A stretch of 64,000 nt of DNA, taken from Raillietiella orientalis. Lineage: Eukaryota. The stretch lies in NCBI GenBank assembly GCA_036172245.1, contig JAYWIR010000018.1, forward strand, positions 2,976,001 to 3,040,000, read 5' to 3'. Of the stretch, positions 6,672-54,514 are shown piece by piece. The translations under genes were made by a program, and so were the position numbers. A model generated the notes under the pieces. It was given only the letters and a program-made list of their open reading frames with translations, did no database searches and was not told the DNA's origin. Each line of letters starts with the position of its first letter. Position 1 is the stretch's first letter.

Positions 6672-9141
6672 TTAATAAGATCGAGCGATATAGAGTAGTT
6701 CATCCCAATACTCGGGATTAATATCATTGAGGAGGCAGCCCATTACTCGTATAGCGTTCTCATTTTGAGCTACCATTTCCGATCGTGATTCATCACCAAG
6801 ATGAGAATAGCCAACCATCGTTGGTCCAAATACCGTGGCTAAGTTGTCAGCAGGCATCTTACATGCTGCACTTCTTGCTACACGACAGAGGTGTGATAGT
6901 AGGAAGGCTAGAGTGTCACGGTTTGGTACAGGTAACTGCTGTATCGCATTGTGAAGACTCCTTCGTCTGACCTCAATGTCAGGAGATGTTGTGGCCTCAA
7001 GAAACGTCTCCAGGAACCTTGTGGGTATCACATGTTCTGTAAGTGACTTCAAAAAGTCTTTGAGTACACTGCACACAGCATGAATCTTATAGAGAGATAA
7101 CTTGGGTTTTCCGGGACTCTTCAGTAAGAGATTCTGGAAAGTATATGCATACATGCACGAGGAATAAAAAAAAAAATTGTTTACCTTCAACTCCTTCACA
7201 GATTTAATAGCACCTGGAACTCGATAAATACCCTTCACGTCAAGACCATGGTCTTCCACATGTTGTACACAACGTATAATGATAGCAGGTATTTGAGGGC
7301 GTGTAACGTACTTGAAATTTCTAAGGCTACCACCTTCCTTTATCTGCGGAGTAGAAGCGCATGGTAATGGCACAAAGTTGTCACAATTACGGTGACAACG
7401 CGCACAGCAACCCCTACAAAGATATGCTATATTGAAAATTCGAAGGCGCTCTCCACATCCTTGACACAGTCTCAGATGGGTCACAAATGTAGCCCTAAAA
7501 CTATGAGGTGTTCGGGGTAATTTCGAGCATGTTGTATCCTCAAAAGGATAAGTTCTTCCGGTTAATATGGAAGATGCCGCACCCTCGGCAGGAAGAACAG
7601 GTTGTGTTATTTCGCTGATTACGTGTACAGTTTCTTCTCTTGGAATTAGAACACTTTCATCCTCAGATCTGAGGACTGGTCTTGTTGGTGGAGCTTCTTT
7701 GAATGCTTCGGGCACCTTTGAAGGAGACCCAATTTTTTCTATTTCACGGTCTGGGAAACTGTGAATATGAACCAAGCAAACAAATGAGTAAATACCTTCC
7801 TGGAGTACCCTGGAATCTACTGCAACATCAAGATCACCAGTAACTTTTGCCGCTGCAGAAAATCGTGTTGGACTTTCCAAGACTGTATCTGCTTCCAATT
7901 TCTAGAGAGTTATGGAAGGGTTGCAAAAATCAGCTGGTTGTTTGCCAATGAACACTTGCTTCGTCAGTAGCAGAAAGTTCATCCGAAGGGCGATACCTCT
8001 TTCGAGGAGGGGTTTCATCTAATGTTCTCTTCTCCCGAGACGTCATGCTGTATTCCGCGTCACGTGAAAGTTCCAAGTCATCTGCTACGGAAGTGCTCTC
8101 ACGGGCTGCTGCACCTGCATATGTATTTATTCAACATATGTACTCCGCTTGAACCCTCTCAGCATGAAATCCAAATGCAAAGTCTCCAAAATGACCATGT
8201 TGAAACATTTCACATCTCAAACGACCACAAAATCATCGTCAGACTATTGGAAACGCCCATAATTAAGTTGACTATTCGCAATCGAGAATCGAATCGACCG
8301 GTGTTGGCTCAGTGGACAGTGGCCGCATGTGGACAGTGAACGTACAGCATGGATGTTCATTGAAAGATTCAAACATTCACGAGTGTTCGAATCTACAGGT
8401 TAGAATGAAAAGTAACGGTACCACGATCCTCGTCTGAAACTCTCACATCTGGGAACTCCTTCTGGGCAGATTCGGTACTCATTCTCCGCTTCAAATATGG
8501 ATGAACAATTTTTTTAGATTCCAGCATGTCCTCCAACAACTTTATGTCAGTTTCCTACAAAATGTTGCCAGTGCAAGAACATAAAAACGCCTTCGTTACT
8601 ACACCATTTAGTAGAACGTACCGCATTAAGCAACTGCTGTAAATAAGTCCCCACAGCAGATCTTTGATCGCCCAGAAATTCGCTCACATCTCTGAATCTG
8701 TCAAAGAGCTGCTCTATTTTAGTGGTTTCATAATCTGGTAAAATTTCCACATTCCAATTTCTGGCTTCCCATGTCTCAATGAGGCTCTTCAGCTGCAAAG
8801 CCCACTGCCATACATTCGAAACGCTCTCTGTAATAAAGAAACGAAATCACTGGAGGAAACTCTCGCACAGAGCATTCCAATACAACTTAATATAAATTTT
8901 TAGGATATCCTTTAATTATCTCATACGCTGAACTCAATTCCATCATACAAATAGATTATACGATGCAACACCATACAAGGAAACGGTAATGATTGCGATG
9001 AACCGATGTCACTTACACAAAATGCCAACGATTACAACGTAGGAAGTTACCAGTTTGCTCCATCAGGGTATCCACACTGCTCCTTAACTCCTCCACGATC
9101 CCATCGAGAAGTTTTCTCAACGTTTCGTCAGTTGTTTCCAT
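6672..9141 (-). CDS. RacGAP1/CYK-4-like paralog, copy 1 (coiled coil, C1, RhoGAP; ~572 aa; C-terminally truncated; Arg finger retained)
   Basis: Exons 9141-9051, 8827-8622, 8554-8422, 8114-7960, 7901-7796, 7750-7185 and 7133-6672 splice in frame (1719 nt). C1 motif HSF..CQGC..C..C..CH..C..LPC; GAP motifs GIYRVPG, LKDFLKSL, NLATVFGP. Confidence 0.88.
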
Positions 9142-51954: not shown

Positions 51955-54514
51955 TCAAGGAAGGCTTGGTGATTGAAAAACACGTCTGGGTTGCAATTGA
52001 GCAGCTCTTCTGCAAGAAAAAATAACACAAGTGGATGGTAACAGTGTACTGACGTTGCCCAGGGAGGTGTGCCAGAATAGCAATCCACAATGGATGGTCG
52101 GAGGACATCAGTATCACGAGGGACGCAAAGTAGTTGATCCCAGTACTCGGGATTAATATCCTTGAGGAGGCACCCCATGACTTGTGTAGCCTTCTCATTA
52201 TCTGCTAGTTGTTGTGATGGAGGTGGATCACCAAGACAAGAATAGCCAACAATCGTTGGTCCAAATATGGTGGCTATGCTGTCATCAGGCATTTTACATG
52301 CTGGACTTCTTGCTACACGACATAGATGTGATAGTAGGAAGGCTAGAGTATCACGGTTTGGTACAGGTAACTGCTGTATTGCATTGTGAATACTCCTTCG
52401 TCTGACCTCAATGTCAGGAGATTTTGTGGCCTCAACAAATGTTTCCCAGAGGCAATTAGGTATGACATGATCTGTAAGTGATTTTAAAAAGTCTTTCAAA
52501 ACACTGCACACAGCATGAATCTCATAGAGAGATAGGTTGGTGGTTCCAGGACTCTTCAGTAAGCGATCCTGGGAAGTATATGCATGCATGCAGGAGGAAT
52601 AAAAAAAAAAATTGTTTACCTTCAACTCCTTCACAGCTTTATCAGCGCCTGGAACTCGATAAATACCCAGCTCTTGAAGACCATGGTCTTCCACATGTTG
52701 GACACATCGTATAACAAGAGCAGGTATGCGAGGGCGTGCAACAACCACAAAATCTTCAAGGGCACCAAACTCTCTCTTCTGTATGGCAGGAATGCATGGC
52801 AACGGCACTAATTCTTTGCATTCTGGATGGCAAAGTGCACGGCAGCCCATACAACGGTATGCTGTCTTGCCAAATCGAATTCGTTGTTTACATCCTTGGC
52901 AGTCTCCTGGCTTCACTACATGTTTAGACACAAAACTATGAGGTTGTTGGGGTAATTTAGAGGCGCTGTTAGTGTGAAGGACAGGAGGCAATTGATGAAT
53001 TGAAACTTGTTTTATTCCACTTTCTGAGGGTGTACGCACATGAAACCCAACTTGACGGCTCTCACTCTGAGATCTTCGCCGAGATTTTCGTGGTACATGT
53101 TTATTGGATTCTTCAAGCACATTAAAAAATGAGTCAACTTTGTCGATTTCATCTGTCTTACGGTCTGGAAAGCTATGAGGATGAACTAGGCAGATGGAAA
53201 AATACCTTGGTTAAATACTGTGGAGGACATTCTTACTCCATCACTTCCATATGTAAGTACAGACTGTGCAATGATCCCTCTTGGAGTTCCCTCGACTGCA
53301 TCTGGTTTTAATTTCTAGAGAATATTCAATATTGTGAAAAAATAAGTTTTTTGAATAGCCATATGCACTTGCTTCATCAGTTGTTATAATATGATACGAA
53401 GGGCGAGACTTCTTTTCTGGAGGTGGTTTATCTAATGCACTGTTCATCTGGGCTCGCATGCTGGCTTCTGTTTCACGATAAGAAATCCCTAAATCATCTG
53501 CACTGCAACTGGTTGCCATAGCTGGTGCATCTGCATAGAAATTAATCAAGAGTATTTTGTGCACCTAACAATGGTCAGCATGAAATGCATTGTATTTGCA
53601 AAGTTTCATCAAAGTCAATATTGAGACCTTCGAAATATCAAACTATCACAAAATAATGTGAAGCTATAAGAAAGCTTTTTATTCAGTTAATGCTCATAAC
53701 ATAGAATTGACTACCCCAGTGTTGAGATAGTATGAACTTAGAGGATGTAAAAAGTAAAATACAATACGAATGCTCACGGAAAGAATGTTAAAGATCAATT
53801 CTAGTGGCTAAAATGAAAGAAACATTTACCGTAATCATCATTTTCAAAACCCATATGTGAGAACTTTTTGTAGCTAAATACAGTATCCAATTGTTGTTTT
53901 AAATCCAGGTTATTTAGGTTATCAGAAGTTAAGATTCCTTTCAGTACATTGATTGTATTATCCTACAAAATAGTAGCAGAACTCAAAATTGGACTAACAC
54001 TCTTTCCCAAACTTTTATAAAAACATACCAAATCACACAACTTTTTTAAATATTTCTGTTTTTCACGCTTTTCTTTGTCCAGCACTTTTCTCGCATTTTG
54101 CAAGGAGTCTGAGAGATCTTCTTTTTCCTTTTGTTCACTTTCTAGTAGCTCTTGCAATTTTCCATTTTTGGCTTTCAAGTCTCTAATGGTCTTCTTGTGG
54201 TCAACAACACACTCCAATAAACTGCAAACGTTAGCTGAAATAAATAAACCAAATCCGTGGAGGACACTTTCGCATAGAGTTTCACAATACAACGCAGTAT
54301 ACATTTAACATTTAGTTGAATTCAATTTCATCTTTCAAATATTTTATACAAGGCTGCAGTAACTATTCTCAAAAATCAATAGAATTTGAACAAACTATAA
54401 ATAGTTACAACATAAACAGTTACCAGTTTCCACTTCTAGGTTATGCTTAGATTCCTCATAAGACCTTTTCACATCTTCGAAAAGGCGTTGAATTCTTTCT
54501 GAAGATTGTGACAT
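51955..54514 (-). CDS. RACGAP1: Rac GTPase-activating protein 1 / CYK-4 (centralspindlin GAP subunit), probable parental gene, 603 aa
   Basis: Exons 54514-54424, 54234-54029, 53962-53830, 53530-53373, 53314-53206, 53164-52620, 52568-52054 and 52009-51955 total 1812 nt in frame. Coiled coil LQNARKVLDKEKREK, C1 HSFVSKHVVKPGDCQGCKQRIRFGK, GAP GIYRVPG, C-terminal RRVFQSPSLP (F-x-S-P tail typical of the family). Confidence 0.92.

Follow-up and report, generated by a model that had tools for sequence, protein, structure and literature searches.

The DNA described here, referred to as the window, is a 64,000-nucleotide stretch from Raillietiella orientalis (assembly GCA_036172245.1, contig JAYWIR010000018.1, positions 2,976,001 to 3,040,000 of the forward strand). 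Its minus strand encodes a canonical RacGAP1 (CYK-4/Tumbleweed) gene, here called the parent, together with five full-length paralogs that form a tandem array on the same strand (copies 1 to 5, or c1 to c5). The array comprises four distinct paralogs and one very recent duplicate, the coding sequence (CDS) of c2 being the same as that of c1. RacGAP1/CYK-4 is essential for animal cytokinesis and for germline bridges, and to our knowledge it is normally a single-copy gene. An earlier note on this DNA had drawn attention to six 49-residue peptides with the C1 zinc-finger pattern. All six were recovered where they had been placed, on the minus strand only, the plus-strand frames being full of stops. 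The copies of C1 are not isolated domains; they are parts of whole tandem genes.

The identity of the parent is clear from its domains and its relatives. Pfam profiles for RhoGAP (113.6 bits) and C1_1 (32.1 bits) match it, and both profiles were found in all six genes. A homolog search with the parent returned 805 proteins at E<=0.001 among 2640 candidates, and the best 120 of the 805 were used as orthologs. Within this set the closest relatives are RacGAP1/Tumbleweed proteins of molluscs, crustaceans, ticks, insects and vertebrates, although identity is only 34-44%. Every named protein in the best 120 is RacGAP1 or Tumbleweed, the rest being unnamed or hypothetical, and all but seven have both RhoGAP and C1 domains. 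The parent C1 matches the solved MgcRacGAP C1 structure 4b6d (E=1.2e-15), and the GTPase-activating (GAP) domain matches 3w6r, 2ovj and 5c2j. Thus the parent shares with RacGAP1/MgcRacGAP/CYK-4/Tumbleweed, the non-motor subunit of centralspindlin, the C1 plus RhoGAP architecture and a coiled-coil-like N-terminus, the latter giving only sub-threshold matches to coiled-coil families in Pfam. When a copy was searched against 1.84 billion representative proteins, no close relative was found, and the best identity was 45%.

The five copies have the same six exon lengths (91, 206, 133, 159, 566 and 462 nt, or 538 codons), begin with ATG and contain no internal stops, and all 25 of their splice-site pairs are canonical GT-AG. 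The exons were recovered by alignment of the repeat units and by a search with the upstream open reading frames (ORFs) of the parent. The N-terminal exons, which are homologous between parent and copies, were missed by tblastn with five ortholog proteins and were found with the parent's ORFs. Retrocopies were considered and excluded, as all introns are retained in the copies; together with the complete gene structure, this identifies the copies as whole tandem gene duplicates rather than retrocopies or lone domains. All copies have a common stop that is premature relative to the parent, and the C-terminal tail of the parent is for this reason missing from them. Linker indels are also common to the copies, as is a 5' flank that cannot be aligned with that of the parent (about 47% differences). 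The last exon of the parent was taken as read-through to the end of the ORF and may contain one further small in-frame intron. Each 538-residue paralog consists of an N-terminal helical (coiled-coil) region, a linker with a basic patch resembling a nuclear localization signal, the C1 zinc finger and the RhoGAP domain. As read from the translation, the N-terminus of the copies is acidic and hydrophilic, and there is no hydrophobic N-terminus.

Self-comparison of the window shows a tandem repeat of about 6.2 kb, broken by two GC-rich blocks of long interspersed nuclear elements (LINEs). Comparison of the complete units c2, c3 and c5 across 6.2 kb in 100-nt bins shows that divergence is distributed very unevenly. 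Most bins of the approximately 3.7 kb of spacer show 0-4% divergence, with values of up to 0.14 near the edge of the unit and immediately after the stop. Within the gene, divergence among copies is low in intron 3 (0.003-0.05), exon 4 (0.05-0.08), exon 6 (0.02-0.10) and the 5' flank (0.04-0.09), and high in exon 2 (0.26-0.45) and exon 5 (0.22-0.32). The small introns that lie inside the diverged blocks are also diverged (0.09-0.30 for intron 2, I2, and 0.12-0.35 for intron 5, I5). Two islands are defined in this way. The first extends from the 3' portion of intron 1, across exon 2, into the start of exon 3, and reaches 0.22-0.36 over exon 2 and its flanks. The second extends from the end of intron 4, across exon 5, into the start of exon 6, and peaks on C1, where the single bin that contains the domain is 0.34-0.44 diverged. 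The array is thus a mosaic repeat. The units are near-identical to one another, and in part to the parent, in their spacers, in introns 3-4 and exons 3-4 and over the C-terminal half of the GAP domain. In the islands, a divergence of 20-44% affects replacement, silent and intronic sites alike.

The C1 domain at the peak of the second island combines a fixed scaffold with a replaced surface. As the earlier note had it, all six C1 stretches are 147 nt long without indels, and all eight zinc ligands are kept in every one. The spacing H-x12-C-x2-C-x12-C-x2-C-x4-H-x2-C-x7-C is the same in all six genes and in 114 of the 120 RacGAP1 orthologs. Among the five distinct C1 sequences, 14 of 49 columns are invariant, namely the eight ligands and F3, Y28, A35, C37, L47 and P48; under the hypergeometric distribution, the eight ligands would all be among 14 invariant columns with a probability of 6.7e-6. 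The description of nearly every other residue as replaced is slightly overstated, though fair, in that 35 of the 41 non-ligand columns vary. Where codons encode an identical residue, ligands included, 7-9 of 20-24 are silently different in five of the six copy pairs, so that the ligands have been conserved across many silent changes. The Pfam curated cut-off for C1_1 (PF00130, zinc-finger phorbol-ester/DAG type, 26.5 bits) is exceeded by the parent (32.1), c3 (33.5), c4 (29.1) and c5 (32.6); c1 and c2 score 21.8 and 22.6 bits, under the cut-off. An AlphaFold model of the c3 C1 domain only (mean pLDDT 78.7, core 84-90, from an alignment of 50 sequences) has 4b6d as its top match in the Protein Data Bank (TM 0.72/0.86, rmsd 1.0 A), followed by Munc13, RAF and PKC C1 domains. 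Because the alignment contains orthologs, this model serves as a consistency check only.

The extent of surface replacement was measured against the 114 orthologs with the same-spacing motif, which provide 88 distinct C1 sequences. Agreement with their consensus extends to 32 of 49 positions in the parent and to 19-23 in the copies. Orthologs from across animals share on average 31 of 49 C1 residues with each other (minimum 19), and the distinct sequences of this one genome share 20-28. At 16 highly conserved non-ligand positions the parent retains 13 of the usual residues and the copies 5-8. A phenylalanine in an R-F-G-K stretch that is invariant in the 120 orthologs is I, N, D or G in the copies. 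By these measures the parent has a RacGAP1-specific C1 surface and the copies do not. The net charge of the copies' C1 domains is +3 to +7, within the range of orthologs (mean 5.6, range 3-8), and this would be compatible with retained binding to acidic membranes. C1 domains typically bind two zinc ions as well as lipid or membrane, and the retained ligands and charge are indirect evidence that the copies may do so. The C1 zinc scaffold is under purifying selection. The remainder of the domain has been replaced at about the neutral rate, with loss of most residues that are near-invariant in RacGAP1 and retention of the usual positive charge.

The silent sites of C1 are highly diverged. Synonymous divergence (dS) is 0.53-1.02 in five of the six copy pairs and 0.52-0.90 between parent and copies. 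In the same five pairs it exceeds that of the rest of exon 5 (Fisher P 0.0003-0.026), the exception being c4-c5. A C1 tree that includes the parent is a star in which parent, c1, c3 and (c4,c5) are not resolved and have similar branch lengths.

Several features are direct evidence of exchange between units. Alignment of c1 with c2 (6064-10988 against 15942-20865) has 55 differing columns of 4927. Forty of these lie in the 1.64-kb upstream spacer, where the allele of c2 is mostly that of c3/c5, and another 13 are at the extreme 3' edge. The 2.47-kb gene body has no substitutions and one 1-nt intron indel, so that the identity of copies 1 and 2, previously remarked upon for C1, extends over the whole 1617-nt CDS. 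The c1/c2 pair is a recombinant or converted unit with a junction near 9346/19223. Informative sites mostly group the copies as (c1/c2,c3 / c4,c5), and minority patterns are seen at the unit edge and in exon 5, where they number 13 and 7 sites against 28. The parent also joins in the homogenisation, as its 3' untranslated region (UTR) and downstream tract shares 95-100% identity with the corresponding sequence in c2, c3 and c5, and an AATAAA signal is common to all units.

The integrity of the coding sequences was assessed by simulation. The differences of each pair (243-358 in 1608 nt) were placed randomly, with density per 30-nt bin and the transition share kept, in 5000 replicates. The simulation mean is 8.4-13 stop codons per pair, and none was observed. 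Stop-free replicates numbered 1 of 5000 for each of two independent pairs (c1-c3 and c4-c5) and 0 of 5000 for each of the other four. Among copies there are no indels in 1617 nt of exons, as against five events in 853 nt of introns. The intact six-exon ORFs, the missing stops, the lack of exonic indels, the ligand conservation and the better fit to C1 of a codon model with constrained sites (M1a over M0, 2dlnL=22.0, with 27% of sites at ω=0) together show that the paralogs are genes kept intact by selection, and they are very likely functional.

A whole-protein comparison used 67 columns that are at least 95% conserved in the 120 orthologs. Deviations number 17 in c1, 21 in c3, 17 in c4 and 22 in c5. 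The parent itself is unusual in deviating at 15 of these columns, and there are five positions at which the copies retain the ortholog residue and the parent does not; this suggests either that the lineage is a long branch or that constraint on the parent has been relaxed to some degree. The arginine finger, present in 100% of the 120 orthologs, is Arg in the parent, c1, c2 and c4, and Ala in c3 and c5. A GAP-domain lysine that is equally invariant in the orthologs has been replaced by Gln in c4 and c5; the parent, c1, c2 and c3 retain it. A near-invariant N-terminal arginine (97% of orthologs) is Glu in all copies (R17->E). RacGAP1 uses its N-terminus to form a heterotetramer with kinesin-6. 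Compared with RacGAP1, the copies share with the parent the exon structure, the domain order, the zinc scaffold and the basic C1, but replace 8-11 of the 16 highly conserved non-ligand C1 residues, lack the C-terminal tail, have Glu for the N-terminal arginine and, in two of five cases, are missing the arginine finger.

These residues allow some predictions of function. The paralogs may be membrane- or cortex-targeted regulators of Rho-family GTPases that have one shared GAP core and differ in a dimerisation or partner surface (the coiled coil, with R17->E) and in a membrane or partner surface (C1). Given the lack of a hydrophobic N-terminus and the basic patch in the linker, each is predicted to be cytoplasmic or nuclear. 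Each would use its own version of the N-terminal helix for dimer formation or partner binding and its basic C1 to contact acidic membranes, and would present a GAP domain whose C-terminal half is kept like that of the parent. From their residues c1 and c2 look catalytically competent, and catalysis by c4 is doubtful (K404Q). Because c3 and c5 have lost the arginine finger, they should be binders or scaffolds that do not stimulate GTP hydrolysis. That the C1 domain tethers centralspindlin to the plasma membrane, as stated in the earlier note, agrees with the literature (Lekomtsev 2012, as cited in PMC6056237), and the parent C1 is a relative of the human MgcRacGAP C1 (4b6d). The same paper describes Caenorhabditis elegans CYK-4 acting without its kinesin partner in germline bridges, where C1 and the GTPase-binding face are needed and an arginine-finger mutant fails to rescue (PMC6056237), and so provides a precedent for a function that is independent of kinesin and dependent on C1 and GAP domains.

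Coordinates of the genes, repeat units and other features are given in Table 1.

Table 1. Features of the RacGAP1 locus, in window coordinates (position 1 is the first nucleotide of the window).
Feature	Position	Strand	Exons or parts	C1 domain	Remarks
Parent, canonical RacGAP1/CYK-4-like gene	51870..54514	-	54514-54424, 54234-54029, 53962-53830, 53530-53369, 53164-52620, 52568-51870	52794-52940	Six exons; ATG; GT-AG at 5/5 introns
Copy 5 (c5)	45821..48283	-	48283-48193, 47969-47764, 47697-47565, 47257-47099, 46897-46332, 46282-45821	46506-46652	538 codons
Copy 4 (c4)	39641..42105	-	42105-42015, 41791-41586, 41519-41387, 41078-40920, 40718-40153, 40102-39641	40327-40473	3' flank interrupted at 39179 by LINE block
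Copy 3 (c3)	22740..25206	-	25206-25116, 24892-24687, 24620-24488, 24180-24022, 23816-23251, 23201-22740	23425-23571	Stop two codons before that of the other copies
Copy 2 (c2)	16550..19018	-	19018-18928, 18704-18499, 18431-18299, 17991-17833, 17627-17062, 17011-16550	17236-17382	
Copy 1 (c1)	6672..9141	-	9141-9051, 8827-8622, 8554-8422, 8114-7956, 7750-7185, 7133-6672	7359-7505	
c2 unit	14665..20853	-	Spacers 14665-16550 and 19018-20853		One complete 6.2-kb repeat unit: about 1.9 kb downstream spacer, 2.5-kb gene, about 1.8 kb upstream spacer (self-blastn and whole-unit alignment)
c3 unit	20854-27050				Complete
c5 unit	43946-50125				Complete
c1 unit	6064-10988				Incomplete
c4 unit	39179-43949				Incomplete
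Parent 3' UTR and downstream tract	50930..52000	-			
GC-rich LINE	10988..14665	+	Reverse-transcriptase ORFs 11413-13119 and 12930-14378		Between c1 and c2 units
GC-rich block of nested/inverted LINE copies	27545..39179		ORF with reverse transcriptase (RT) and zf-RVT, 28385-31474 (-)		Between c3 and c4 units
ORF with LEM domain	56321-57631	+	Single ORF		436 codons
Rab3-type small GTPase gene	62796-63647	-	Exon 63414-63647; ORF 62796-63185		ORF has two coding parts and an in-frame intron

The LINE insertions have about 60% GC within a locus of 40-45% GC. The larger block contains at least two related LINE copies in opposite orientation. Its 1029-aa ORF has one 70% match (a protein from a JGI contig), and the remaining matches are L1/Tx1-like elements with 23-31% identity. 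The array ends at about 6064; the sequence beyond (window 1-6064) is unrelated to the repeat unit and GC-rich (61%) at 4-6 kb, and the ORFs tried there had no Pfam match. The spacers of the c2 unit and their equivalents include stretches of 50-56% GC with overlapping ORFs on both strands. No structured RNA was identified in the conserved spacer (no Rfam matches at the gathering score), no transfer RNA genes were found in the window, and 18 of the 23 ORFs in a Pfam scan, spacer ORFs included, were without a match. It is possible that the spacer is an old transposon remnant. Also encoded, upstream of the parent on the opposite strand, is a protein with an N-terminal LEM domain (Pfam 43.5 bits). 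The Rab3-type gene has at least two exons and is 67-76% identical to Rab3 of many animal phyla; an Ancylostoma protein that appeared as its top relative was set aside, as its score is high only because the domain is present twice in that protein.

The explanation that we favour, and consider fairly probable, is that the paralogs form an old family that has been homogenised by gene conversion except in islands kept distinct by selection. We infer the age of the family from C1, where copies are about as distant from each other as from the parent. Continuing gene conversion or unequal exchange would homogenise the array, and selection would remove those conversion tracts that erase differences in the coiled-coil and linker/C1 modules. 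Within the protected islands, linked silent sites, intronic sites and unconstrained replacement sites would all diverge, which would give a ratio of replacement to silent substitution (dN/dS, or ω) close to 1 without positive selection at individual sites. Islands that coincide with the two interaction modules and peak on C1 are what is expected if conversions that erase differences are selected out. The position of C1 at the peak of a divergence island, within a repeat that is otherwise homogenised, favours selection for diversity.

Several points weigh against this explanation. The copies are gene models drawn from genomic sequence. A divergence island can also form in the absence of diversifying selection, when segments free of constraint drift fast enough to block homology-dependent conversion, and assembly polishing of the tandem repeat could have made the spacers look more alike than they are. 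Among the copies, dN/dS is close to 1 everywhere. The codon tests use four distinct copies (six pairs) on the best tree, ((c1,c3),(c4,c5)), with near-saturated silent sites, and were made with our own, unvalidated maximum-likelihood implementation and with little power. Nei-Gojobori dN/dS among copies is 0.92-1.19 for the whole CDS. Under the one-ratio model (M0), ω is 1.23 in exons 1-2, 1.20 in exons 3-4, 0.95 in exon 5, 0.75 in C1 and 1.00 in exon 6, none significantly different from 1. A model that allows sites with ω>1 (M2a) improves on M1a only marginally in exon 5 (P=0.022, ω2=1.8) and exons 1-2 (P=0.046, ω2=2.7), and not in C1 (2dlnL=1.2, P=0.55). The whole-gene M2a result (P=8e-13) was set aside as confounded by regional differences in silent rate.

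For C1 itself, Nei-Gojobori dN/dS is 0.44-0.71 in five of the six pairs and 1.35 for c4-c5. These values, the M0 estimate and the M2a test do not support the claim that C1 is under diversifying selection. Thus, of the earlier proposal that the domains belong to functional proteins under diversifying selection on binding specificity, the first part is very likely, the fold scaffold being under purifying selection, and the second is not supported as stated. Two signs that had been named jointly as marks of neutrality come apart in these data. Substitutions per codon position are even in C1 (28/34/36) and in exons 1-2 (58/57/59), and stand at 40/46/26 in the linker, but conservation of the zinc ligands is significant. 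On the tests as they stand, C1 is a constrained scaffold with a near-neutral surface, and demonstrable positive selection is absent.

The main rival is that the paralogs may be functional without any selection for diversity, if after duplication the relaxed surfaces of the coiled coil, linker and C1 drifted neutrally around a constrained scaffold and then escaped homology-dependent conversion while the rest was homogenised. We regard this as possible but rather doubtful. It accounts well for ω near 1 in all regions, never significantly above 1 under M0, for a C1 domain that a model with 27% of sites at ω=0 and 73% at ω=1 fits no worse than one with ω>1, for the even spread over codon positions, and for I2 and I5 being as diverged as the exons around them. 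It has difficulty with the unconstrained spacers and introns 3-4, which have been homogenised to 0-4%, as the early escape of a neutral segment requires that its first differences be favoured or protected. Nor does relaxation predict that the two islands should be the two interaction modules, with a peak exactly on C1, that M2a should be marginally better than M1a in exon 5 and exons 1-2, or that net C1 charge should stay in the range of orthologs.

Recent duplication followed by local hypermutation or an adaptive burst would require that two coding blocks evolve 10-30 times faster than the rest, and could be read from spacers that are 0-2% diverged in most bins beside islands of 20-44%. However, silent sites and introns in the islands are elevated as well, which selection on amino acids cannot cause, and the youngest pair, c1/c2, has no gene-body substitutions against 40 spacer differences, so the islands are not hypermutating now. 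These two observations make a recent burst or hypermutation unlikely, and the C1 domains of the copies, equally distant from each other and from the parent, together with the mosaic sharing of alleles that reflects exchange between units, argue in the same direction. It is more unlikely still that the islands are cassettes imported by ectopic conversion from further divergent paralogs outside the window. Graded island borders and deep divergence would suit such an origin, and the minority site patterns in exon 5 hint at mixed histories, but no donor is visible within the window, and the 45% best match among representative proteins offers none. Decaying duplicates, with ligands conserved by chance or recency, would agree with whole-gene dN/dS near 1, the sub-threshold C1_1 scores of c1/c2 and the two copies without an arginine finger, but are hardly credible given no stops where 8-13 per pair are expected, no exonic indels, 25 of 25 canonical splice-site pairs, and ligand conservation at P=6.7e-6 with silent changes in the ligand codons.

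The closest known parallels to the array are found in parasitoid wasps. Vesicle-associated RhoGAP families in the venom of Leptopilina and in the calyx virus-like particles (VLPs) of Venturia canescens derive from RacGAP1, are packaged into venosomes or VLPs, and are described in a preprint as lineage-specific, partly tandem and fast-evolving, with most members lacking the arginine finger (bioRxiv 10.1101/2023.06.05.543686). According to the same preprint, duplication in the wasps left truncated genes; those of Leptopilina no longer have the coiled coil or C1 and have acquired a signal peptide, Venturia kept the C1 motif in 8 of 13 members and has a signal peptide in none, and most positively selected sites in L. 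boulardi are in the RhoGAP domain (bioRxiv 10.1101/2023.06.05.543686). The copies described here likewise form a multigene family that arose by RacGAP1 duplication. Unlike the wasp genes, as far as these are described there, they are full length, the C-terminal GAP half is their most conserved part, and divergence is concentrated in the coiled coil and C1. They have six exons, and the wasp genes 9-10. Among the best 120 of 805 homologs, the RacGAP1 proteins of wasps share only about 42-44% of residues with the parent, and this low identity and the exon structure show that the array is independent of the wasp cases. A limited literature search on RacGAP1 duplication found the wasp preprint and no full-length hypervariable RacGAP1 array.

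Drosophila RacGAP84C (RotundRacGAP) is a further paralog of RacGAP1. It is described as a male-germline Rac/Cdc42 GAP involved in spermatid cyst elongation (PMC3469442). RacGAP84C is thus an example of an extra RacGAP that became specialised to a tissue, but, as described, is a single gene and not a hypervariable array.

The combination of homogenised sequence and persistent differences has precedents outside this family. In medaka RH2-B/RH2-C and primate L/M opsins, and in the model of Teshima and Innan 2004, differences are held by selection against gene conversion (PMC7337190). As in those duplicates, conversion would homogenise most of the sequence here, and functionally important differences would persist under selection. 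Where the opsins, as presented there, have a few protected sites, the array has whole modules, about 200 and about 600 nt long, with a divergence of 20-44% among spacers that differ by 0-4%. The peptide-binding exons of the major histocompatibility complex (MHC), snake-venom phospholipases A2 (PLA2) and conotoxins are well-known cases of hypervariable exons with conserved introns or flanks. The RacGAP1 copies resemble these families in that non-coding parts are more alike than coding parts that face ligands or partners. Those proteins are extracellular, with dN>dS, whereas the paralogs are cytokinesis-type regulators of the cell interior with dN close to dS.

In summary, the coiled-coil and C1 modules of these copies are as different from each other as those of different animal phyla, which suggests that the membrane- and partner-binding surfaces of RacGAP1 can be re-specified with the scaffold kept. 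The array is a third case beside the two RacGAP1-derived families of wasps, with a different architecture. It is also an unusually clean natural case of divergence of about 0-4% against 20-44% within 6 kb of a concertedly evolving tandem array, and the locus should be useful for telling selection against gene conversion from relaxed constraint. A more specific and speculative proposal, to which we give only limited credence, is that the array is a cassette system protected by selection, in which conversion homogenises all but two modules, and these are held maximally different because each paralog must recognise or escape a different partner or membrane target. If this is true, it would point to conflict or an arms race inside the cell, for instance with a pathogen or a selfish germline element or, as in parasitoid wasps, through proteins delivered as effectors, and would be the first instance of a C1 zinc finger used as a hypervariable recognition surface.

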